From Opitutales bacterium (GTDB taxonomy: Bacteria; Verrucomicrobiota; Verrucomicrobiia; Opitutales; PNEW01), in NCBI GenBank assembly GCA_963692525.1, contig OY829953.1:4420720-4484719 (forward strand): 64,000 nucleotides of DNA. The letters are read 5' to 3'. The translations under genes were made by a program, and so were the position numbers. A model generated the notes under the pieces. The model did not search any database, was not told the DNA's origin, and was given only the letters and a program-made list of their open reading frames with translations. This document shows, in pieces, positions 6,820 through 60,510 of this stretch (its first letter is position 1; every line of letters begins with the position of its first letter).

Positions 6820-8900
6820 GTGACTACCGAATCGGTGTCGATATAGGCGGTACTTTCACCGATCTCGTGATGATGGATGAAGCGACGGGAAATTTACGCC
6901 TGATCAAAATGTCGAGTACGCCTCACGATCCATCGATAGGTTTTATGAATGTGACTGAACGGGTTCTCAAGGAATCCGCTATAGACCCGGCGCGTGTCTC
7001 CTACCTGGTCCACGGCACCACAGTGGCGACAAATACGATCATCGAAGGAAAAGGAGCCAAGACAGGCTTTATTGCAACCGAGGGATTTCGCGACGTCTTT
7101 GAGATTGGCCGGCAGATCCGTCCCACGCTCTATGACATTTTCTGTGATAAACCAAAGCCATTAATCCCGCGCTACCTTTGTCGTGAAGCACCCGAGAGGT
7201 TAGATTATGCCGGGGATGTTTTGAAGCCTCTGGAAACAGAGCGTGTCCGCGAAGTGATTCGCCAGTTAAAGGTTGAAGGCGTGGAGTCTATCGCCGTTTG
7301 CCTGCTTCATGCTTACGTCAATGCCGAGCATGAAAGACAGGTGAAGGAAATCATCGACGTAGAGATGCCAGAAGTATTCGTGTCGATCTCTTCAGATCTA
7401 TGCCCGGAAATGCGTGAGTATTTTCGCGCCAGCACGACGGCGATCAACTCACTCCTGATGCCAATCGTTACCCGTTATCTCGGCCAACTGGAAAACCGAC
7501 TTGAGTCTCTGGGGGTTAAAGCCGGACTGCACTTAATGACTTCCGCCGGCGGCATGTCATCCTCGGACGTAGCCCGCAAAGAACCCGTTCACCTGATCGA
7601 GTCGGGGCCGGCAGCGGGAGTTATCGCTTCGACCTTCATCGGTAAGATGGCGGGCGTTGATAACCTTATCAGCTTTGATATGGGCGGGACGACAGCAAAA
7701 GTGGGTTTGGTTGAAGACGGTATGCCCAAGGTCGCACCCCACTTCGAAGTCGGAAGCGCAGCCGTGGCTGACAACCGGGCTGCCGGTTATCCCGTCAGGA
7801 CCCCCGTCATCGACCTCGTTGAGATTGGCGCGGGCGGCGGCAGCATCGCATGGGTCGATCCGGGAGGTGCGTTGCGGGTCGGTCCTCGAAGCGGCGGTGC
7901 CGATCCCGGTCCAGCATGCTATGGCAAAGGCCAGAAAAATCCTTGTATTACCGATGCCAATCTTTTGCTCGGACGCCTTAACCCGGAATACTTTATCGGG
8001 GGGGAGCAGAAACTGTTTCCCGAGCTTGCCGAAACTGCAATTAAAAAACTGTCTGATCAACTGGGAATGAATGTCATCGAAGCGGCTGACGGAATCATCC
8101 AGATAGCCAACGCGAGCATGGTGGGAGCGATTCGCTTGATCTCGGTTCAACGCGGTTTTGATCCCCGTGAATTCGTCCTTGTCGCTTTTGGCGGCGCTGG
8201 TCCTCTGCACGCCAATGACCTCGCACAAGAATTGGAAATTCCAAAAATTCTTATCCCGATGAGCCCCGGTGTTACCTCGGCTTTGGGACTGCTCGTGAGC
8301 GATGTTAAACATGACTACGTACAAGCTAACATTGCACCGATGGAGACCGTAGACCTGCAGGCTAACAGTCGTATTTTCGAAGACCTTGAAACCCGGGCGC
8401 GACAGGTGCTCACTTCGGAGGATATCCCTGCATCTGATATATCTTTTCTTCGCTATCTCGACATCCGTTACATCGGTCAATCCTACGAATTAAAAATTCC
8501 CGTTGAGAATCGACTGCTTGAACCGGATGATAAAGAATCAATCAATGCCGCTTTTTTTAAGGAGCATGAACGGGCTTACGGCTACGCCACCGCAAGTGAA
8601 CCCACGGAAGTCGTCAACTTGAGGTTAACGGCAATCGGCTCAATCAGTAAACCGACATTGCGAGAACTGGAAGCAGGTGACGGTGACAGCTCGGGTGCGG
8701 TTAAATCCAAACGTCCGGTCTACTTTTCAAAGCTGGGGAAAAATGTTACCTGCAAGATATACGATCGCTATAAATTAAAAGCCGACGATTGTATCGACGG
8801 CCCTGCTATTGTCGAAGAATTCGATTCCACGGTCGTCATCCTACCCGACTACTTCGCAAAGGTGGATCGTTTTGGTAATTTATTTATAGAGGAAAAATAG
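6816..8900 (+). CDS. hyuA: Hydantoinase A / oxoprolinase family protein
   Basis: 694 aa. The N-terminus YRIGVDIGGTFTD is typical of the family and the gene is translationally coupled to hyuB. Confidence 0.9.
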   Translation: MSDYRIGVDIGGTFTDLVMMDEATGNLRLIKMSSTPHDPSIGFMNVTERVLKESAIDPARVSYLVHGTTVATNTIIEGKGAKTGFIATEGFRDVFEIGRQIRPTLYDIFCDKPKPLIPRYLCREAPERLDYAGDVLKPLETERVREVIRQLKVEGVESIAVCLLHAYVNAEHERQVKEIIDVEMPEVFVSISSDLCPEMREYFRASTTAINSLLMPIVTRYLGQLENRLESLGVKAGLHLMTSAGGMSSSDVARKEPVHLIESGPAAGVIASTFIGKMAGVDNLISFDMGGTTAKVGLVEDGMPKVAPHFEVGSAAVADNRAAGYPVRTPVIDLVEIGAGGGSIAWVDPGGALRVGPRSGGADPGPACYGKGQKNPCITDANLLLGRLNPEYFIGGEQKLFPELAETAIKKLSDQLGMNVIEAADGIIQIANASMVGAIRLISVQRGFDPREFVLVAFGGAGPLHANDLAQELEIPKILIPMSPGVTSALGLLVSDVKHDYVQANIAPMETVDLQANSRIFEDLETRARQVLTSEDIPASDISFLRYLDIRYIGQSYELKIPVENRLLEPDDKESINAAFFKEHERAYGYATASEPTEVVNLRLTAIGSISKPTLRELEAGDGDSSGAVKSKRPVYFSKLGKNVTCKIYDRYKLKADDCIDGPAIVEEFDSTVVILPDYFAKVDRFGNLFIEEK

Positions 8901-21307: not shown

Positions 21308-21324
21308 AAAAAAAAGGGGGGGGG
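21308..21324. repeat. A8G9 double homopolymer tract
   Basis: 'aaaaaaaaggggggggg' lies between the four-helix-bundle gene's stop and the amidohydrolase start. Confidence 0.95.
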
Positions 21325-21328
21325 ATAA

Positions 21329-21357
21329 GTGAACAGTAAACAGTGAACAGTGAATAG
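21329..21357. repeat. 'gtgaacagt' word array, left arm of cassette 1
   Basis: 'gtgaacagtaaacagtgaacagtgaatag' is complementary to 21817-21850. Confidence 0.85.
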
Positions 21358-21369
21358 ATAGCTATCTCG

Positions 21370-21801
21370 TTATGGTGTGCTGTATTCGGCACCATCTTCT
21401 CTCATGTCAAATGGGTCCTTGACGCAAAAGGATGCGGATTTGAATGTCATACTATTCAGCATGCGTCCAATTTTGGAAAGCTTTTCACATAACTCGTTCG
21501 CTTTATCTTCGTTTAAATACATGCAATCTACCGCCGTTTCAATCCAGTGCTGCGTTTCATATTGTTCAGCATCTGCATCTGTAAGTTTACTCACAAAATG
21601 TTTCTCATAACGTCGTTTTCCCCATGCCTCAGCAATTTGGGCACCAATTGATCTGGATGACCGCCTTACTTGGTCTGTAAGCGAATAGATTTCTTCCTTA
21701 GGAACTTCTTTTGAGATTATGAAGATCTCAACAGAAACTGTTCTTGCCTTACGATAAACAATCAGGTCCCTGAAATTGGAAGCATGTGGATTTTTATGCA
21801 C
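21370..21801 (-). CDS. Four-helix-bundle protein (23S rRNA intervening-sequence protein / Avd-like family)
   Basis: 143 aa. NFRDLIVYRKA..EIYSLTDQVRRSSRSIGAQIAEAWGKR is typical of this family. GTG start, with 'gaggagg' upstream. Confidence 0.85.
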   Translation of the reverse strand: MHKNPHASNFRDLIVYRKARTVSVEIFIISKEVPKEEIYSLTDQVRRSSRSIGAQIAEAWGKRRYEKHFVSKLTDADAEQYETQHWIETAVDCMYLNEDKANELCEKLSKIGRMLNSMTFKSASFCVKDPFDMREDGAEYSTP

Positions 21802-21816
21802 GATCTACTTCCTCCT

Positions 21817-21850
21817 CTTACTGTTCACTGTTTACTGTTTACTGTTCACT
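21817..21850. repeat. 'actgttcac' word array, right arm of cassette 1
   Basis: 'cttactgttcactgtttactgtttactgttcact' has 16-20 bp of perfect complementarity to 21329-21357, depending on register. Confidence 0.85.
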
Positions 21851-25661: not shown

Positions 25662-25850
25662 GAGATAGCCACAAAATGTAAGGAGTGATAATGCGTGAAT
25701 GCGTATAAGCGATAATGCGGAGAGAATAGTCAAAAAGTTAAAAGGTCAAAATAAATGCTGGAATTGCCAGGATTAACTTTATTCTGTATCATCTATTCTG
25801 AATCCTGCGCATTCACGCATTCACGCATTCACGCATTCACGCACATCCGC
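25662..25850. repeat. Nested palindrome with a 4x tandem 8-mer
   Basis: 'gcattcac' x4 (25808-25843) faces 'aatgcgtgaatgcgtataagcg' (25690-25711). 'gtcaaaaagttaaaaggtcaaaa' lies at 25729-25753 and 'agatagccacaaaatg' at 25664-25680. Confidence 0.75.
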
Positions 25851-27887: not shown

Positions 27888-28080
27888 AGACCGGAGGGCC
27901 GGAAAGCCAGAAAACCGGATATCCAGTTCCGAGTTCCGCCGTCGCGGAACGACATCTTCCAAGCCAGCGTTCCGGAAAGCCGGAAGACCAGACAGCCTGA
28001 TAGCCAGAAAGCAGTGATTAGTAAATTATCTAGTGTTAGAGCTCCTGCCTTTTGACCTTTTGACTTTTTGACATTTTGAC
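27886..28080. repeat. Composite: 'ccggaaagcc' words - hairpin module - 'ccggaaagcc' words - TTTTGAC array
   Basis: Hairpin module at 27923-27965 (stem gttccgc/gcggaac). Flanking purine-rich words at 27886-27919 and 27966-28012. 'ccttttgaccttttgactttttgacattttgac' at 28047-28080. Confidence 0.75.
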
Positions 28081-40130: not shown

Positions 40131-40415
40131 GAAGGTGTCGGGTTTCAGGTGTCGGTGAAGCGGGTTCCCATCGACTACGCTCAGTGTAGACAGGTTTCAG
40201 AGTTTAGCCGGAGTACCGGTTCCGAGTTCCGCCTTTGCGGAACGACATCTTCCAAACCAGACAACCGGAAAGTCGGAAGGCCGAGGTACGAGATAGGCAA
40301 CTTGTCCTAAGCCCAGTACCTGGAAACTATCTTCACTTAAAACCTAACACCTAAAACTTAACACGCGCGTAGCGCTCCCCTCCTTTTGACTTTTTGACAT
40401 TTTGACATTTTGACC
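40131..40415. repeat. Composite of at least five module types
   Basis: 'gaaggtgtcgggtttcaggtgtcgg' (rc copy at 45879-45907). 'gggttcccatcgactacgctcag' follows. Hairpin module at 40213-40258. 'cttaaaacctaacacctaaaacttaacac' follows. TTTTGAC array at 40382-40415. Confidence 0.75.
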
Positions 40416-43132: not shown

Positions 43133-45700
43133 ATGAATCTCTCCTATGCTGTCACTTTATGTTTAACCACCTTCCTATGCTTTATCGGGCGCGCCGAAGG
43201 TGAAACGCGAAGACCAGAGAACATCACCTGGGAAGAACTGCCAGAACTCCCCAACGCCCAAGGTCTGGGAGGGGCTTTTGCCGGGGTCAGCAATGGCGCG
43301 CTCATCGTCGCTGGAGGTTCGAATTTTTCACAGGCCGCGGAAACAGGACTCGGAAGCAAAGTCTGGTATGCGGATATTTACGTTCTGCCCGAAACTGAGC
43401 GAGCAACTTGGCTAACGGGTTATAAACTGAATGAGCCGCGAGCTTACGGAGCATCCGTTAGTAGTGGTAAGCATTTAATCCTGATTGGCGGAAGCAGTGC
43501 AGAGGGTTATCACAATGAGGTTACGCAAATTACCTGGGAGGCCACTACTCAGAGAGTGAAACAAGAGTTGCTTCCTTCCCTGCCGCTAAATCTAACATTA
43601 AACGGCGCTGTTGAAATTGATGATATTGTATACGTTGTGGGGGGTCAGATCGATGACGAGAGAGCGAACTTGAAGAAGATCTTCTGGTCACTCAACCTGA
43701 ATAACCCCGAAGCGGGATGGGAATCGTTAGAAACCTGGGGGGGACCTGCCCGGAGAAGCGCTGTTGTTGTGAGTCAGAATACCGGCAATAGAAGAAACAT
43801 ATACATTATGGGCGGTGAAACACTCATCGAAAATGAAATGGGTGAAATTCACTCCAAGCAGTTGACTGACGGCTACCGCTACTCACTGCATAAGGATAAG
43901 TGGGAACAGACTAAGGATATCCCCCACCCCGTAACCGCGGCTCCCGGTATTGCTTATGGTCAATCACACATACTTATTTACGGTGGGAAAACACATGAGG
44001 ATATCGCACTGGACCCCTCTTATTCACGCGATCTTCTTGTCTATCATACGATCACGGACACCTGGCTAATAAAAGCCGAGATGCCTTTAAGCCTGGTGTC
44101 AGCAGAAGCGGTATCCTGGGGTGAAGGAATCGCCTTAACCGGTGGCGAGACCGAACCTGGGACGATGACCCCAAAGGTGCAATTAATGATTCACGACCCA
44201 GGAGCTGGCGCGTCGTTTGGAATTATAAATTACACTTTTCTCACTCTCTATCTCATGGGCATAGTTTACCTTGGCTTTTACTTTTCCAAAAGAGAAAAAG
44301 GAACGGATGATTACTTTCTTGCGGGGCGCCGTGTTCCCTGGTGGGCGGCAGGGCTCAGTTTACTGGGCACAGGGCTTAGCGCCGTTACTTATATTGCCCA
44401 TCCCGCCTTAACTTTTTCTACGGACTGGTTTTATTTTCCGGTTCGGATCGGGTTCTTTTTCGCACCGATCATGATAATTTATTTCTACCTGCCATTTTAT
44501 CGAAGGTTAAATATTACGACCGCTTACGAATACCTGGAGCTACGTTTTAACGTGGCCGTACGCTTATTCGGCAGTGCTCAATTTATTTTATTTCAATTGT
44601 TGAGGATCAGTCTAATCATGTATCTACCCGCCATTGTTCTTACCACGATCACGGGGATAAATATTTATGTATGCATACTGTCTTTAGGATTGATCAGCAC
44701 TTTTTACACGGTACTGGGCGGCATTGAAGCGGTGATTTGGTCGGATGTTATCCAAGTGTTCATATTCATTGCCGGACTCATAGTTGCCCTGATCGTCGTC
44801 TTCTTTAATGTCGATAACGGTTTTAAAGGGATGATCGATATTGGTCTCGCCGATGATAAATACCGGATGTGGTACCTGGACTGGGATTTTACCGAACCAA
44901 CATTGTGGGTATTATTAATTAGCGGTGCGATGGGTACCTTTATAGTCTTATCCTCCGACCAAAGCAGAATACAAAGATTTCTAACAACAAAAGATGAAAA
45001 AGGTGCGGCGAAAGGGTTATGGTTAAACGTAATTGCCAGTCTTCCGCTGGGGGTAATCGTCCTTGCCATGGGATCAGCACTTTACGCTTATTACAAAACA
45101 CACCCGAGCAGTGTCAGCTTGGGGATGCGGAACGACGCGATTTTTCCTCTCTTCATCGCGCAAAATCTTCCCACAGGTATTGCCGGTTTCGTCATCGCGG
45201 CCATCTTTTCCGCGGCGATGTCGAGTCTGGACAGCGGGATGAACTCTATCGCTACAGTCTTTGTCACCGATTTTTATCGTCGGTTTAAAGCGAATAATTC
45301 TGATAAATTTTATTTAAACCTCGCGCGTTCCATTACCTTGCTCATTGGTATTTTTGCAACCTCTGTCGCCCTCCTCCTGGTTACCTTGAATATTTATTCT
45401 GCTGTTATCTTCGCCAGCTCCGTCTTAGGGCTTTTTATTGGGGGATTGGGGGGATTATTTGCCCTCGGTATTTTTACTCGACGGGCGAATGGGTATGGGG
45501 CCTTCGTCGGCGCGGTCATCAGTGCAATAATCCTTTATTATGTAAAATACCATACTCCGATAAGTATATTCCTCTACCCCACGATTGGATTCACCGTCTG
45601 TCTTGTCGCCGGGTATTTTGCCAGTCTGATTATACCCGAGCGGAAAAAATCCCTCGAAGGACTGACTATTTACACGGTCCTACCGAGGGGTGATCAGTGA
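43133..45700 (+). CDS. Fusion: periplasmic kelch/NanM-like beta-propeller + sodium:solute symporter (SSS) family transporter
   Basis: Signal peptide. Kelch-like blocks GGAFAGVSNGALIVAGGSNF and YGASVSSGKHLILIGG resemble E. coli NanM. From about aa 365 it carries the SSS hallmark DYFLAGRRVPWWAAGLS and about 13 TMs. Confidence 0.8.
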   Translation: MNLSYAVTLCLTTFLCFIGRAEGETRRPENITWEELPELPNAQGLGGAFAGVSNGALIVAGGSNFSQAAETGLGSKVWYADIYVLPETERATWLTGYKLNEPRAYGASVSSGKHLILIGGSSAEGYHNEVTQITWEATTQRVKQELLPSLPLNLTLNGAVEIDDIVYVVGGQIDDERANLKKIFWSLNLNNPEAGWESLETWGGPARRSAVVVSQNTGNRRNIYIMGGETLIENEMGEIHSKQLTDGYRYSLHKDKWEQTKDIPHPVTAAPGIAYGQSHILIYGGKTHEDIALDPSYSRDLLVYHTITDTWLIKAEMPLSLVSAEAVSWGEGIALTGGETEPGTMTPKVQLMIHDPGAGASFGIINYTFLTLYLMGIVYLGFYFSKREKGTDDYFLAGRRVPWWAAGLSLLGTGLSAVTYIAHPALTFSTDWFYFPVRIGFFFAPIMIIYFYLPFYRRLNITTAYEYLELRFNVAVRLFGSAQFILFQLLRISLIMYLPAIVLTTITGINIYVCILSLGLISTFYTVLGGIEAVIWSDVIQVFIFIAGLIVALIVVFFNVDNGFKGMIDIGLADDKYRMWYLDWDFTEPTLWVLLISGAMGTFIVLSSDQSRIQRFLTTKDEKGAAKGLWLNVIASLPLGVIVLAMGSALYAYYKTHPSSVSLGMRNDAIFPLFIAQNLPTGIAGFVIAAIFSAAMSSLDSGMNSIATVFVTDFYRRFKANNSDKFYLNLARSITLLIGIFATSVALLLVTLNIYSAVIFASSVLGLFIGGLGGLFALGIFTRRANGYGAFVGAVISAIILYYVKYHTPISIFLYPTIGFTVCLVAGYFASLIIPERKKSLEGLTIYTVLPRGDQ

Positions 45701-45948
45701 ACAGTGAGAAAATGTAGCAGATTGTGCAGAAAAATCCACATGCCGCGAATTGCTTAGATTATATTGCATCGTGAATCATGCATCTTGCATCCTGAACCTT
45801 GAACTATCTTCACCTAAAACCTAAAACTTAACACTGCTACTGCATTTTCACCGTTCACTGTTTACTGTTCACTTCTTCCCTGAAACCTGACACCCGACAC
45901 CCTCTCCGCACTTTTCACTTTCCACTTATCATTTCTCACTTCTCTCTC
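45697..45948. repeat. Word-array intergenic region containing a decayed four-helix-bundle cassette
   Basis: 'gtgaacagtgag' (45697-45708) overlaps the stop codon. 'ccgttcactgtttactgttcac' at 45852-45873. 'cctgaaacctgacacccgacaccc' at 45879-45907. 'cttcacctaaaacctaaaacttaacac' at 45808-45834. Confidence 0.8.
45724..45774 (+). pseudogene. Remnant of a third four-helix-bundle gene (first ~10-16 codons only)
   Basis: 'gtgcagaaaaatccacatgccgcgaat' (MQKNPHAAN) aligns with the 5' ends of both intact copies (MHKNPHASNF and MQRNPHAVNF). It is flanked by the same words in the same relative order. Confidence 0.55.
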
Positions 45949-48528
45949 ATGAAACAATCCTGTGTTATCTTATTGTGCTTAGCTGCCTTGAATTGCATAG
46001 CAGGGCACAGTGAAAGCGCAGCGCCGACACAGGAAGCCATCAGTTGGAGTGAACTTCCCGAACTGCCTAACCGCTTAGGTCTGGGAGGGGCTTTTGCCGG
46101 GGTCAGCAATGGCGCGCTCATCGTCGCTGGTGGTTCGAATATTCCACAAGGTTCGGAAGCAGAAGTAGGAAGCAAAGTCTGGCATGCGGACATTTACGTT
46201 CTGCCCGAATCTGAGCAAGACGCATGGCTAACGGGATATAAACTGGAAAATCCTCAAGCTTACGGAGCATCCGTAAGTAGTGGTGAGCATTTGATCCTGA
46301 TTGGCGGAAATAATGCAGAGGGTTATCACAAAGAGGTTACGCAAATTACATGGGATACCACGACCCAGAAAATGAATCAAGAGTTCCTGCCGCCCCTTCC
46401 CCAGGCTCTCGCATACACCGGCGCTGCAGAAATAGATGATATTGTATATGTTGTGGGTGGTCAGGTTGACGGCGAGAGATCAAGTCTGAAGAATATTTTT
46501 TGGTCACTTGACCTGAATAATCGGGAAGCGGGATGGAAATTGCTAAAATCCTGGGAGGGCCCGGCGAGGAGAAGGGCCATCGTTGTAGGCCAGAATATTA
46601 GTAATGGCAGATATGTATACATTATTGGCGGTGAAGAAAGGATTCAGAATGAAAATGGTGAGATTCAAAGCAGGCAATTGACCGACGGCTACCGCTATTC
46701 CCTTCGTTATGAGCAATGGGAACCTATCGCCGACGCCCCCCACCCCGTAACCGGGGCCTCTGGAGTTGCCTATGGGCAATCACATATTCTTATCTTTGGA
46801 GGCAATACCTGGAAGCACAAGGATGTGAATTCAAGTAAGGATCATCCCAGCTATTCACGCGATCTTCTCGTCTATCACACGGTCACTGATACCTGGTTGG
46901 TAAAAGGTGAAATACCATTAGGGGTTGTGTCTTCTGAAGCGGTGTTATGGGAAGAAGGGATCGCCATTACCGGTGGAGAGACAGAACCAGGGATAATGAC
47001 CCCTAAGGTTCAAATAATGATTCATGATGCGGGAGCGAATGCATCGTTTGGAATCATAAATTATGCTTTTCTCCTGCTGTATATGGTGGCGCTTATCTAT
47101 ATGGGTTTTTATTTTTCCAGGCGGGAGAAAGGAACAAAAGATTATTTTCTCGCCGGTCATCGTATACCGTGGTGGGCGGCAGGGCTCAGTATTCTGGGAA
47201 CCGGACTTAGCGCCCTAACTTATATTTCCTATCCCGCATTGGCTTACACCACGGACTGGTTCCTATTTCCCGGAAGGATTGGGTTAATCTTTGCTCCAAT
47301 AATTGTTATCTATTTTTTCCTGCCGTTTTACCGAAGGCTTAATGTTACTACCGCTTACGAATACCTGGAGAAACGATTTAATCTGCCTGTTCGCTTATAC
47401 GGGAGTGTACAATTCATAATTTATCAATTAATCAGGATCAGTATTATTCTTTATCTACCGGCAGTCGTTCTCTCCACCATCGCGGGGATTAATATCTACT
47501 TATGTATTCTCTTTATGGGATTAATCAGCACCTTTTACACCGTGCTGGGTGGTATCGAAGCGGTCATATGGTCGGATGTTTTACAGGTCATTATATTTTT
47601 TATCGGTATCATTATTGCCCTCATCGTCATTCCTTTTCATATCGATAATGGTTATAAGGGGATAATCGATATCGGTTTGGCTGATGATAAATACCGCATG
47701 TTGTATCTGGAGTGGGACTTTACTGCGCCCGTCCTATGGGTGTTATTAATTAGTAGTGCTTTTGGTGCCTTTTTGGGACCATCCACCGATCAAACCACGA
47801 TCCAAAGGTATCTTACGACGAAGGACGAAAAAGCGGCCGCGAAAGGGATATGGTTAAGTGCTATAATAGGTATTCCCGTCGGTTTTTTATTTTATGGAAT
47901 GGGTACCGCCCTCTACGCCTATTATAAAACGCACCCAGCCACAGTCAGCATGGGAATGCAGAATGACGCGATTTTTCCTCTCTTCATCGCACAAAATCTT
48001 CCCTTCGGGCTTGCCGGTTTTGTCATTGCAGCCATCTTTTCCGCAGCGATGTCGAGTCTTGACAGCGGGATGAACTCGGTGGCCACGGTCATTGTCACAG
48101 ATTTTTACCGACGCTTCAAACCCAAGAAACCCGATCGTCTCTATTTGTATCTGGCTCGCTCGGTTACCTTAGTCATCGGTCTCATTGTCACCGTTATCGC
48201 CCTCTCTCTGGTTACTTTTGATATTCATAATGCCGCATTGTTTGCTACCGCTATCGCCGGATTGTTTATCAGCGGATTGGGCGGACTGTTTGCCCTGGGT
48301 ATTTTTACTCGACGTGCGAATGGTATTGGTGCCTTAGTCGGTGCGATTACCAGTGCGATAGTCCTTTATTTTGTGAAATTTGAAACACCGATACACTTTC
48401 TCCTCTACTCATCTATCGGATTCATCACCTGTTTTGTCGTTGGCTATTTATCCAGTCTATTTATACCCGAGCGAAAAAAGTCTCTCGAGGGGCTGACGAT
48501 TTATTCCATGCTCGCGAGGAAGGAATAG
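45949..48528 (+). CDS. Fusion: periplasmic kelch/NanM-like beta-propeller + sodium:solute symporter, tandem paralog
   Basis: 859 aa, colinear with 43133..45700 and roughly two-thirds identical to it. Confidence 0.8.
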   Translation: MKQSCVILLCLAALNCIAGHSESAAPTQEAISWSELPELPNRLGLGGAFAGVSNGALIVAGGSNIPQGSEAEVGSKVWHADIYVLPESEQDAWLTGYKLENPQAYGASVSSGEHLILIGGNNAEGYHKEVTQITWDTTTQKMNQEFLPPLPQALAYTGAAEIDDIVYVVGGQVDGERSSLKNIFWSLDLNNREAGWKLLKSWEGPARRRAIVVGQNISNGRYVYIIGGEERIQNENGEIQSRQLTDGYRYSLRYEQWEPIADAPHPVTGASGVAYGQSHILIFGGNTWKHKDVNSSKDHPSYSRDLLVYHTVTDTWLVKGEIPLGVVSSEAVLWEEGIAITGGETEPGIMTPKVQIMIHDAGANASFGIINYAFLLLYMVALIYMGFYFSRREKGTKDYFLAGHRIPWWAAGLSILGTGLSALTYISYPALAYTTDWFLFPGRIGLIFAPIIVIYFFLPFYRRLNVTTAYEYLEKRFNLPVRLYGSVQFIIYQLIRISIILYLPAVVLSTIAGINIYLCILFMGLISTFYTVLGGIEAVIWSDVLQVIIFFIGIIIALIVIPFHIDNGYKGIIDIGLADDKYRMLYLEWDFTAPVLWVLLISSAFGAFLGPSTDQTTIQRYLTTKDEKAAAKGIWLSAIIGIPVGFLFYGMGTALYAYYKTHPATVSMGMQNDAIFPLFIAQNLPFGLAGFVIAAIFSAAMSSLDSGMNSVATVIVTDFYRRFKPKKPDRLYLYLARSVTLVIGLIVTVIALSLVTFDIHNAALFATAIAGLFISGLGGLFALGIFTRRANGIGALVGAITSAIVLYFVKFETPIHFLLYSSIGFITCFVVGYLSSLFIPERKKSLEGLTIYSMLARKE

Positions 48529-48663
48529 AAAGCCGGAGGACCAGAGAACCAGAAGACCGAAAAGCCGTAGGACTAGTGAGAGAGGGTGGAAGATGTCGAG
48601 CTACGCTCTCGGTACGGGGTTCAGAGGATAGTGAACAGTGAACGGTAAACAGTGAACAGTGGG
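48529..48663. repeat. Left flank of cassette 2: 'ccggaggaccag' words, hairpin-type module and 'gtgaacagt' array
   Basis: Module 'gtggaagatgtcgagctacgctctcggtacggggttcagagg' at 48586-48627. Array at 48631-48663. Confidence 0.8.
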
Positions 48664-48678
48664 AAAATGATTGACGCC

Positions 48679-49113
48679 CTACAGGGTGAAATAATCGGCG
48701 TCATCTTCTTTAATAATAAATGGGAATTTCTCACAAAATGATGCGGACTTGTCTATCATGCTATTCAACATACGTCCGATTTTGGAAAGCTTTTCACATA
48801 GCTTGTTCGAATTATCATCACTTAAATACCCGCTATCTACAGCAGTCTCAATCCAATGCTGCGTTTCATATTGTTCAGCATCTGCATCTGTAAGTTTACT
48901 CACAAAATGTTTCTCGTAACGTCGTTTCCCCCATGCTTCCGCTATTTGGGCCCCAATCGATCTTGACGATCTCCGCACCTGGTCAGTAAGTGAATAGATT
49001 TCTTCCATTGGGAATTGTTTTGAGATAATGAAGATTTCCTCAGCAACATTCCTTGCTTTCTGATAAACGATCAGATCCCTGAAATTTACAGCGTGCGGGT
49101 TTCTCTGCATCAT
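48679..49113 (-). CDS. Four-helix-bundle protein (23S rRNA intervening-sequence protein / Avd-like family)
   Basis: 144 aa. A 57-aa central block is identical to 21370..21801. Confidence 0.85.
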   Translation of the reverse strand: MMQRNPHAVNFRDLIVYQKARNVAEEIFIISKQFPMEEIYSLTDQVRRSSRSIGAQIAEAWGKRRYEKHFVSKLTDADAEQYETQHWIETAVDSGYLSDDNSNKLCEKLSKIGRMLNSMIDKSASFCEKFPFIIKEDDADYFTL

Positions 49114-49123
49114 CAGCTTCCCT

Positions 49124-49249
49124 CTTACTGTTCACTGTTTACTGTTCACATCTAACTATCGGCATTTTTCCTGAACCCTGTACCGAGGGCGTAGTCCGAC
49201 ATCTTCCACTCTGAACCCTTTCTCACTGTTCACTGTTTACTGTTCACAG
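49124..49249. repeat. Right flank of cassette 2: 'actgttcac' array, inverted hairpin-type module, second 'actgttcac' array
   Basis: 49127-49149 is complementary to 48631-48663 with 1 mismatch in 23. 49170-49210 is the inverted copy of 48586-48627 (about 37 of 41). A second array lies at 49222-49249. Confidence 0.8.
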
Positions 49250-60240: not shown

Positions 60241-60510
60241 AGAAGAATTGCCACCAGTCGTCGTCCCGCAGTCGCGGGACTATGCCCGACAGGCATCGAT
60301 CGATATGCGAAATGCAGGGTTCCCGTCTTCGCTTCGCTTCGCCGTGACAGGCAGGGTTCGGGGTTCGGGGTTTAGAGAAGATAGATATACGATTTCCGAT
60401 ATCCGATATGCGATATGCGATATTCGAAGTATCGATAAGGTTCAACCCCTCGCAAATCGAATATCGAATATCAAACGTCGGATATCATTTCCCTCGCATA
60501 TCAAACATCA
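60241..60510. repeat. Composite: hairpin module, 'cttcgcttcgcttcgcc' words and unit U1 of the 'gatatgcgatat' family
   Basis: 'gtcgtcccgcagtcgcgggac' at 60258-60280. U1 at 60376-60510 is about 85% identical to U3 at 61906-62036. Confidence 0.75.

Follow-up and report, generated by a model that had tools for sequence, protein, structure and literature searches.

The four-helix-bundle (4HB) protein family PF05635/TIGR02436, also named "23S rRNA IVS protein", was first found inside intervening sequences (IVSs) of 23S rRNA, and Ralph and McClelland reportedly described in 1993 such intervening sequences with an S23p / 23S_rRNA_IVP ORF in Leptospira. Tandem heptamer arrays are familiar from the intergenic regions of cyanobacteria, where they are known as STRR. 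In Coxiella burnetii, the 23S rRNA IVS holds an S23p ORF in a stem loop and is excised by RNase III (Warrier et al. 2016, PMC4990558). Tandem heptamers of varying copy number are located upstream of this ORF, and strain AuQ01 carries a 176-bp ORF deletion in which the stem is kept (PMC4990558). Intergenic heptamer arrays with the repeat GGGAATC occur in Xanthomonas, 70-75 as convergent inverted pairs (Rehm et al. 2015, PMC4692102).

In the current study, a spacer between two co-directional symporter genes was analysed within a window of Opitutales DNA (the window being the whole stretch of 64,000 nucleotides that was analysed), and we consider it, with a probability of roughly two in three, to be the gene-less relic of an 'IVS-like' cassette. 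The term cassette denotes here the hairpin architecture of 23S rRNA IVSs and not an integron cassette. The Coxiella 23S rRNA IVS is the closest precedent: the same protein family is encoded in the loop of a long inverted-repeat stem, heptamers of strain-variable copy number closely precede the ORF, and the stem outlasts this ORF, which is dispensable and subject to decay. The spacer has the inverted repeats of a long stem and tandem heptamers by the ORF start (45690-45710), but it is situated between two protein-coding genes, the end of one of which forms its 5' arm, rather than in helix 25 or 45 of 23S rRNA, and its heptamer is GTRAACA as opposed to GACAGAT in Coxiella.

Results

The spacer follows symporter 1 (43133-45700), which encodes a NanM/kelch beta-propeller fused to a sodium:solute symporter (Pfam SSF 4.5e-45, NANM 5.1e-32), and precedes symporter 2 (45949-48528), identified as its paralogue by profile search; both genes and all parts of the spacer are read on the + strand. 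Its 5' arm (45690-45710) is the heptamer array GTGATCA GTGAACA GTGAGAA, which supplies the last codons (GDQ) and the stop of symporter 1, the TGA being located at 45698-45700 and overlapped by gtgaacagtgag at 45697-45708. A leader (45704-45723) containing gaaaatgtagcag follows, and a block homologous to the 5' ends of 4HB genes (45716-45751) comprises 8 nt of this leader, a GTG start and nine to ten codons (MQKNPHAAN), with gtgcagaaaaatccacatgccgcgaat at 45724-45750. From the GTG, a residual reading frame (45724-45774) encodes MQKNPHAANCLDYIAS and reaches a TGA after 16 codons, in agreement with the frame collapse noted in the preliminary description. The distance from array to start is 18 nt, the same as in cassette 1 (see below), and the Shine-Dalgarno sequence is destroyed (aggagg to aaaatg).

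The ensuing interior (45752-45843, 92 nt) has no detectable similarity to any 4HB ORF and is made of generic word arrays, among them (TTGCATC)n at 45764-45791 and (ACCTAAA)n at 45812-45831; it also holds TAACACTGCTA. The anti-leader ctgctactgcattttcac (45834-45851) is complementary to the leader, its partner there being gaaaatgtagcag, and is followed by the 3' arm (45852-45872), the heptamer array CGTTCAC TGTTTAC TGTTCAC, with cattttcaccgttcactgtttactgttcac located at 45844-45873. Further word arrays, (CCTGACA/CCCGACA) and (CACTTTT)n, occupy 45873-45948 up to the start of symporter 2. The two arms constitute an inverted repeat of 18 nt (45690-45707 and 45855-45872) which is 89% complementary and faces inward. 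All strings quoted in the preliminary description were recovered in place, including the overlap of its 5' string with the symporter 1 stop; the match that it drew between the 3' junctions of the spacer and cassette 2 holds for the shared 'cattttc' and array, but is approximate, with a 2-nt offset.

Two intact cassettes on the - strand provide the comparison. Cassette 1 (21328-21850) consists of a 5' array (21850-21821), a 4HB gene (21801-21370) and a 3' array (21357-21328), its arms of 30 nt being 93% complementary. Cassette 2 (48583-49247) is built of nested inverted repeats, namely an outer array (49247-49223), a REP-like stem (49212-49171, with its partner at 48624-48583), an inner array (49149-49127), a 4HB gene (49113-48679) and a 3' array (48666-48630), and its sense RNA folds at -236 kcal/mol (z = -12). 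On their profile matches both genes can be placed securely in the PF05635/TIGR02436 family (PF05635 6.3e-31 and TIGR02436 1.5e-27 for cassette 1; PF05635 4.4e-32 for cassette 2), and PF05635 genes are the only ones found flanked in the cassettes by profile search. The PF05635 domain comprises ~105 residues, of which the spacer retains ~10 homologous codons before its stop after codon 16, and judged on its sequence it is a fragment of a gene of this family, not a member of it.

Allowing at most one mismatch, GTGAACAGTRAACAG has 15 matches in the window against 0.02 expected, all at three loci (21329-57/21821-50, 48631-60/49127-49/49223-47 and 45690-704/45858-72). Two of the three loci of (GTRAACA)n arrays thus bracket intact 4HB genes and the third is the spacer, and none occurs elsewhere in the window. 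Each cassette stands alone between housekeeping-type genes, and no direct repeat that might represent a target-site duplication was seen by eye to flank cassette 1, cassette 2 or the spacer. A clean empty site for cassette 1 was considered and rejected because the downstream neighbourhoods of the relatives differ; in relatives with 94% and 88% orthologues of the gene upstream of cassette 1, no 4HB gene follows the orthologue.

Concerning the homology of the spacer to these genes, alignment with the arms removed places 45716-45751 in collinear position on cassette 1 with 29 of 36 nucleotides identical, at a score of 42 compared to 17.6 +/- 2.3 for shuffled sequences (z ~10; the maximum of 1000 shuffles was 26). 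The pairwise alignment suggested in the preliminary description therefore returned a significant result, none of the 1000 shuffles reaching the score. Its 27-nt match to both intact gene starts is upheld for cassette 1, whereas the match to cassette 2 taken alone is not significant (score 22, a value reached by 55 of 1000 shuffles). The same block shares 33 of 36 positions with the leader and gene start of a 4HB gene from L008, a MAG assigned to a different genus (Ca. Moanabacter), and 43 of 43 positions with the orthologous spacer of the related locus L003. Within the window, the sole other occurrence of AAAAATCCACATGC is in cassette 1, and the objection that another repeat family might explain the match was accordingly not sustained. 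Past codon 10, similarity to 4HB genes is indistinguishable from chance, with 8 of the next 15 nt matching by eye count. A scan of JGI metagenomes with a 26-nt 4HB block gave no match, hence no 'parent' gene was found there.

The spacer RNA folds with a minimum free energy of -57.1 kcal/mol (z = -3.7), the arms and the leader/anti-leader pair together forming a predicted stem of ~31 bp, of which the latter pair adds ~13 bp, around a loop of ~110 nt; the spacer RNA of L003 folds at -90.5 kcal/mol (z = -8.1). The stem is followed by 'ttcttccctg' with no T-run, and a terminator scan of 45701-45948, which considers loops of 3-8 nt only, found none. A promoter scan found none in the spacer, and an Rfam scan detected no rRNA or other Rfam family in the window. 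Selection on the RNA stem gave no signal in the arms of 34 cassettes, where G:U-compatible mismatches numbered 65 and A:C mismatches 62.

No exact protein is on record for symporter 1 and relatives were reached via homologues, which yielded seven related loci: L001, L003 and L068/L069 with both symporters and a spacer, and L002 and L070/L071 without the second symporter. Wherever symporter 2 is present among the relatives, the symporter-1 frame terminates within the 5' arm, whereas in L002 and L070 symporter 1 ends differently and has no array. The full-length gene that the preliminary description envisaged at this position in related strains is present in none of the seven loci.

The spacer itself is polymorphic among these relatives. 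L003 carries the same relic with a longer 5' array of ~9 heptamer units. The first ten codons of the residual frame are conserved there, and the last six contain four differing positions, all of which change the amino acid (CLDYIAS in the window, CLYYLES in L003). As this tail is unconserved, the residual frame is an ordinary pseudogene fragment and not a small gene. In L068 and L001, a REP-like insert takes the place of the 4HB block and the 16-codon frame is absent, and both share the interior 45752-45843 with the window. L068 keeps both arms around an interior without 4HB sequence, together with the anti-leader, whose 5' partner has been replaced; in L001 the 3' arm is also gone, with the symporter genes intact. 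The one argument for a direction of change is the partnerless anti-leader of L068, which points to the window-type spacer as the older state. The spacer is 94% identical between the window and L003, compared to 98% for the symporter-2 body and background. The idea that the relic is more conserved than its flanks was rejected, since the low flank identity comes from swapped kelch segments and the background is ~98%.

At the site of cassette 2, L003 has the 4HB gene of the window, L068 carries another PF05635 gene and L001 is gene-less. Within a shared outer hairpin, one 4HB gene has thus taken the place of another in L068, and the module from ~45812 to 45900 of the spacer recurs reversed at the gene-less site of L001. 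Three states at one site among relatives indicate that the turnover is real, and this comparison of sequences shows such cassettes coming and going between closely related strains. Together with an independent truncated copy in another Opitutales genome (L067), in which the 4HB gene is cut off after 20 codons, this site lends independent support to the gain and decay dynamics proposed in the preliminary description.

Discussion

An intact cassette comprises, in order, a 5' GTRAACA array, a short leader with a ribosome-binding site, a 4HB gene of ~143 codons, an anti-leader and an inverted 3' array, whereby the pairing of the arrays and of leader with anti-leader places the 4HB gene in the loop of a long hairpin. 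The inward arms, the 18-nt leader, the start with ten 4HB codons and the lost Shine-Dalgarno sequence favour the original proposal of a decayed + strand cassette that has kept both arms. We infer that a full 4HB gene once sat in the spacer, that an internal deletion or replacement took everything after codon 10, and that the ribosome-binding site was mutated away. The relic would make no protein, and its hairpin would remain in the transcript between the co-directional symporter genes, where it may, as in rRNA IVSs, be cut by RNase III or otherwise affect the symporter mRNA. Erosion appears to be still under way in the population, as seen in the replaced block of L068 and the additional loss of the 3' arm in L001, and the turnover would be driven by slippage and recombination at the arrays.

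Against the relic reading stand the fact that no relative has a full gene at this position and the generic word arrays of the interior. Hairpins with these arrays are far more numerous in metagenomes without an ORF than with a gene, and so the hairpin may have preceded the 4HB sequence in the spacer; given how common such array-bracketed hairpins are, the arms alone prove nothing. It is conceivable, if on balance unlikely, that no full gene was ever present, and that short gene conversion or ectopic recombination, initiated from the shared 5' array, copied ~46 nt of 4HB leader and codons into a pre-existing gene-less array hairpin. Such hairpins are the commonest form in the metagenomes, both arms of L068 enclose an interior free of 4HB sequence, and the region is visibly recombinogenic (kelch segment swaps, paralogue conversion); the absence of the full gene from every relative is likewise in its favour. 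The partnerless anti-leader in L068 is, however, more easily explained if the leader and anti-leader arrived as a pair with a cassette, and the 'cattttc' adjoining the 3' array resembles the 3' junction of cassette 2. A chance resemblance, or a match from another repeat family, might be thought of in a genome full of 7-8-nt word arrays, the more so as the cassette 2 match alone is not significant. This reading is highly improbable and has in effect been refuted by the shuffle test against cassette 1, by the identity to an independent 4HB gene of another genus in collinear position, and by the restriction of the block in the window to the spacer and cassette 1.

Whatever its origin, the hairpin may have been retained for a host function in the symporter transcript, by offering an RNase III site, by stabilising the 3' end of the upstream mRNA or by acting as a partial terminator or insulator between the two genes, which we regard as possible yet doubtful. 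The strong folding in two relatives is consistent with such a role, as is the incorporation of the 5' arm into the end of the symporter-1 frame in all relatives with symporter 2; short array hairpins in metagenomes with a G+C clamp and flanking A/T runs resemble bidirectional terminators, and RNase III cleavage of a homologous stem was shown in Coxiella (PMC4990558). L001, however, has lost the 3' arm altogether and retains intact symporter genes, the stem is not followed by a T-run or recognised by the terminator scan (restricted to loops of 3-8 nt), the spacer is not more conserved than its neighbours (94% as opposed to 98% for the symporter-2 body), and there is no covariation or wobble signal. 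The reading of the 16-codon frame as coding for a functional micropeptide or leader peptide has very little to commend it: the frame is open, has a GTG start and its first ten codons are conserved in L003, but it is devoid of a Shine-Dalgarno sequence, its start is buried in the predicted stem, the four differing positions in its last six codons all alter the amino acid, and L001 and L068 do not have it at all.

The relic and the cassettes also share features with other repeat-associated elements. As in REPIN/RAYT systems, a gene is located between inverted short repeats and gene-less hairpins are far more abundant, but the flanked gene is PF05635, with no known catalytic activity, instead of a Y1 transposase, and the arms are tandem heptamer arrays instead of a single palindrome. 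MITEs likewise keep terminal inverted repeats around a deleted interior, with gene-less copies outnumbering gene-bearing ones; in contrast, cassettes 1 and 2 and the spacer have no visible target-site duplication and no transposase, and the metagenome hairpins have the palindromic gaaaagc/gcttttc at their borders instead of direct repeats. Integron cassettes (attC) resemble the present elements in having a small promoter-less ORF, an adjacent imperfect palindrome and presence/absence variation, but here the ORF has an arm on either side, the cassettes occur as scattered single units and no ordered cassette array was seen. STRR and the Xanthomonas arrays are similarly tandem heptamers in intergenic regions, whereas in the window the arrays bracket 4HB genes, a link made in none of the reports on STRR or GGGAATC.

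For the two transporters the relic is without biological consequence, unless the hairpin processes their mRNA. Its value is in recording, in closely related strains, hairpin sites that stay fixed while the genes at them are acquired, exchanged or lost and, by joining the arms of gene-less hairpins to the first codons of a 4HB gene, in tying both forms together. The link between 4HB genes and heptamer arrays is a more novel lead than the relic itself. Inverted heptamer arrays bracket the gene in 31 of 54 loci from five phyla, which were found by protein similarity alone, and different protein clades go with different heptamer words (GTRAACA, GTAAGTA/GTGAATT, GGAGTAA and GGGTTCA, with GACAGAT in Coxiella). 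The exchange of 4HB genes at the cassette-2 site is a further lead. A speculative and rather improbable extension is that the 4HB (S23p / Avd-like) proteins are dedicated and so far unrecognised partners of the heptamer-array hairpins, binding or mobilising their own heptamer as DNA or RNA. Gene-bearing hairpins would then be autonomous, gene-less hairpins and the spacer relic would be non-autonomous or regulatory targets, and such targets would possibly include the STRR-type and Xanthomonas heptamer arrays. A tested link would bear on the function of PF05635/TIGR02436 outside diversity-generating retroelements (DGRs) and on the origin of bacterial intergenic heptamer arrays.

The DGR accessory protein Avd (NF033474 / PF22296 bAvd) has a homologous four-helix-bundle fold, and the window proteins match bAvd weakly, but their 40 bits fall short of the NF033474 cut-off of 80. 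Given the proximity of an Avd-like gene to hypervariable kelch segments, a DGR was considered and rejected. In addition to the missed cut-off, no template/variable repeat was seen for the variable kelch segments, which gave only paralogue matches, and symporter 1 matches the variable segment of symporter 2 at 81% identity, a sign of conversion between paralogues. Near-identical strains differ by exchanged kelch segments, and conversion has occurred between the two symporter paralogues.

A 4HB gene start between the two symporter genes

The DNA separating the two NanM/kelch-SSS symporter fusions (symporter 1, 43133-45700; symporter 2, 45949-48528; both on the plus strand) had been described as a decayed cassette which retained both arms but had lost most of its ORF. 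The strings quoted in that preliminary description were all located where it placed them, and the first indeed overlaps the upstream stop codon, as the 5' array (heptamers GTGATCA, GTGAACA and GTGAGAA; 45690-45710) covers the symporter-1 TGA (45698-45700). On the plus strand, this array is followed by a leader to 45723, which reads aaaatg where cassette 1 has aggagg, by a GTG start with ten codons of four-helix-bundle (4HB) type as far as 45751, and by an interior of 92 nt. The interior consists of the generic word arrays (TTGCATC)n and (ACCTAAA)n and resembles no 4HB ORF in sequence comparison. An anti-leader complementary to the leader (ctgctactgcattttcac; 45834-45851) and the inverted 3' array (CGTTCAC, TGTTTAC and TGTTCAC; 45852-45872) complete the element. 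The GTG-initiated frame terminates early (45724-45774; translation MQKNPHAANCLDYIAS and a stop), which bears out the reported frame collapse; the retention of both arms is likewise borne out, while the likeness of the 3' junction to that of cassette 2 proved approximate only.

With arms removed, positions 45716-45751 align collinearly with the cassette-1 leader and start (29/36; score 42 against 17.6 +/- 2.3 for shuffled sequences), and 18 nt separate the last heptamer from the start codon in both. Alignment to cassette 2 alone, the other intact gene proposed to match codon for codon, was not significant. For the array word GTGAACAGTRAACAG (at most one mismatch), the window has 15 matches where 0.02 are expected, confined to three loci, namely around 21370-21801 (minus strand), around 48679-49113 (minus strand) and in the spacer. 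Chance resemblance, or membership of another repeat family, is excluded: none of 1000 shuffles scored above 26, the spacer block agrees at 33 of 36 positions with the leader/start region of a Ca. Moanabacter 4HB gene (MAG L008), and outside cassette 1 the block has no further copy in the window.

The spacer RNA is predicted to fold into a stem of approximately 31 bp, formed by the arrays and by leader and anti-leader, around a loop of approximately 110 nt (MFE -57.1 kcal/mol, z = -3.7), while Rfam, promoter-like and terminator-like scans of the spacer gave no match. Translation of the 45724-45774 frame into a micropeptide is unlikely given that it has no Shine-Dalgarno sequence, that its start codon lies inside the predicted stem and that the peptide tail is not conserved. 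Abundant gene-less hairpins of the same arrays exist in metagenomes (see below), and therefore the arms alone are no proof of a decayed gene; it is the leader and codons that tie the spacer to the gene-bearing form. Alternatively, a gene-less hairpin may already have occupied the spacer and received a patch of approximately 46 nt from a cassette. Visible signs of recombination at the locus favour such a transfer, yet we regard it as less probable than decay of a gene-bearing cassette.

The N-terminal kelch parts of the symporters (43233-44000 and 46033-46500) are hypervariable, with 63-78% identity between strains otherwise 98-99% identical, and the lower overall symporter protein identities arise because these segments are swapped. 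Since symporter-2 positions 46038-46548 are closer to symporter-1 positions 43222-43732 (81% identical) than to their own orthologues (73%), the sequences point to conversion between the paralogues.

The spacer in related genomes

The window proteins have no exact database record and syntenic contigs were reached through homologues. By its closest genome hits, the organism belongs to the Opitutales (Verrucomicrobiota). The symporter-2 body is 98% identical among the window and two close relatives (L001 and L003) and approximately 90% identical in a more distant one (L068). L003 carries the same relic (spacer 94% identical, 4HB block 43/43); its 5' array (8588-8645) is expanded from the three heptamers of the window to approximately nine (GTGATCA/GTGATCG/GTGAACA), the added copies being predicted to form G:U pairs with a downstream (CACTTTT)n array. 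In L068/L069 the spacer has kept its two arms together with the interior and anti-leader seen in the window, but segment X, an insert of approximately 100 nt with the REP-like motif GGAAGATGTCG at its core, stands in place of approximately 40 nt that comprise the 4HB codons and most of the leader. In L001 the 5' array and segment X are present, while the distal interior and 3' arm are lost. We infer that the window-type spacer is older and the X-type derived, on the single argument that L068 keeps an anti-leader whose sole complement is a 4HB-type leader. A full-length 4HB gene at this site was absent from every relative's locus examined.

The last three codons and stop of symporter 1 (GDQ-stop; 45689-45700) come from the 5' heptamer array. 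This C-terminus is supplied by the element, because symporter 1 ends differently in L002 (10550-10565) and L070/L071 (L070 6535-6548), relatives which lack both the array and symporter 2.

Intact cassettes and their turnover

Both cassette ORFs (21370-21801 and 48679-49113) encode PF05635 members (23S rRNA intervening-sequence protein; E-values 6e-31 and 4e-32) and also match TIGR02436 (four helix bundle protein); the relatives with solved structures, 2RLD and 2GSC/Xcc0516, are four-helix bundles that form pentamers. Their arms are inverted heptamer arrays, of 30 nt and 93% complementarity in cassette 1 (21328-21850, minus strand) and of 37 nt and 86% in cassette 2 (48583-49247, minus strand). 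The latter has a second, outer stem (42 nt, 88%) made up of GGAAGATGTCG and is thus a hairpin nested in a hairpin. Its sense RNA is predicted to form a single giant hairpin whose loop contains the ORF (-236 kcal/mol, z = -12), the stem continuing beyond the arrays as the ribosome-binding site/start region pairs with sequence just past the stop codon. Read in gene orientation, the cassette-1 3' arm runs directly into a C8T9 homopolymer pair (21310-21328), perhaps a terminator tail, perhaps a tract prone to slippage.

Turnover of 4HB genes is real, and the gain and decay dynamics proposed earlier find support in three occupancy states at the cassette-2 site, whose neighbours are symporter 2 and a peptidase M19 gene. 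The window and L003 share the same gene (98% DNA identity); L068 (10420-11110) has, within the same outer hairpin, a different PF05635 gene (133 aa) with (GGGTTCA)n on its flanks, so that the site is fixed and its occupant has been exchanged; L001 has no gene, only a 3'-arm module homologous in reverse orientation to window 45812-45900. An Opitutales MAG (L067, OY762281.2; 2440-2560) carries an independently truncated 4HB gene, in which arrays, start and 20 codons (MQRNPQAANFRDLIVYQ...) give way to unrelated DNA. No 4HB gene follows orthologues of the cassette-1 upstream gene in the relatives; neighbourhoods differ there, and a clean empty site for cassette 1 was rejected accordingly.

Relation to known systems

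The closest documented system is the 23S rRNA IVS of Coxiella burnetii, in which the S23p ORF is enclosed by a stem as its loop, the start is preceded by GACAGAT heptamers (three in tandem, with a copy number that differs between strains), RNase III excises the element at the first repeat, and the ORF, with a poor or removed Shine-Dalgarno sequence, is 'undergoing reductive evolution', one strain having a 176-bp deletion (PMC4990558). By analogy, the window hairpins are probably double-stranded RNA substrates, in which case the relic would cut or insulate the symporter-1/symporter-2 transcript; it would thus work like an IVS, but outside rRNA. Strong selection on the relic is argued against by three results: the 3' arm is missing from L001 with no visible harm, the wobble-asymmetry test showed no signal (65 vs 62) and spacer conservation is no higher than that of its surroundings.

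Other classes of element were rejected: a DGR, as the cassette ORFs match Avd models weakly, below cut-off, and no template repeat was seen for the variable kelch segments; a MITE, as no target-site duplication is visible at either cassette or at the spacer; and a REPIN/RAYT system, as there is no transposase. Integron cassettes differ in organisation, since here arms lie on both sides of the ORF and cassettes are dispersed singly.

Heptamer arrays beyond the locus

Significant inverted repeats (z >= 5) flank 31 of the 54 assessable 4HB loci found by protein, which span Verrucomicrobiota, Lentisphaerota, Chloroflexota, Bacteroidota and others. The repeats consist of heptamers in tandem; GTRAACA predominates, and other protein clades use other words. 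The literature that could be searched yielded no account of 4HB genes outside rRNA being organised as hairpin cassettes whose heptamer arms are clade-specific, and a paper on Xanthomonas heptamer arrays does not link Xcc0516 to them (PMC4692102). The association of 4HB genes with heptamer arrays is the lead worth following, the relic itself being of modest interest.

A metagenome scan with one 22-nt array returned at least 120 loci. Among the matches listed, 45 had inward-facing pairs, most of them short gene-less hairpins (interior 9-107 nt, commonest approximately 38 nt), and full 4HB genes occurred at four loci only, plus a few fragments. The abundant gene-less form, gaaaagc-(GTRAACA)3-4-GGGGGCTCCG-loop-CGGAGCCCCC-(TGTTYAC)3-4-gcttttc (L094, L099, L100, L103, L110, L116, L120, L163, L183, L187, L188 and others), looks like a bidirectional intrinsic terminator made of the same heptamer.

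Copies of the REP-like motif GGAAGATGTCG number 11 in the window, where 1.35 would be expected (11481, 17231, 17315, 27950, 29395, 33541, 40243, 48588, 49197 and others), and usually sit within small hairpins, for example gttccgag...gcggaacgacatct. Short tandem arrays of 7-8-nt words crowd the intergenic regions (79 TRF rows; e.g. 13577-13599/13679-13713, 25808-25843, 28048-28080, 40334-40414 and 60384-60427), several of them arranged as inverted pairs that might form hairpins.
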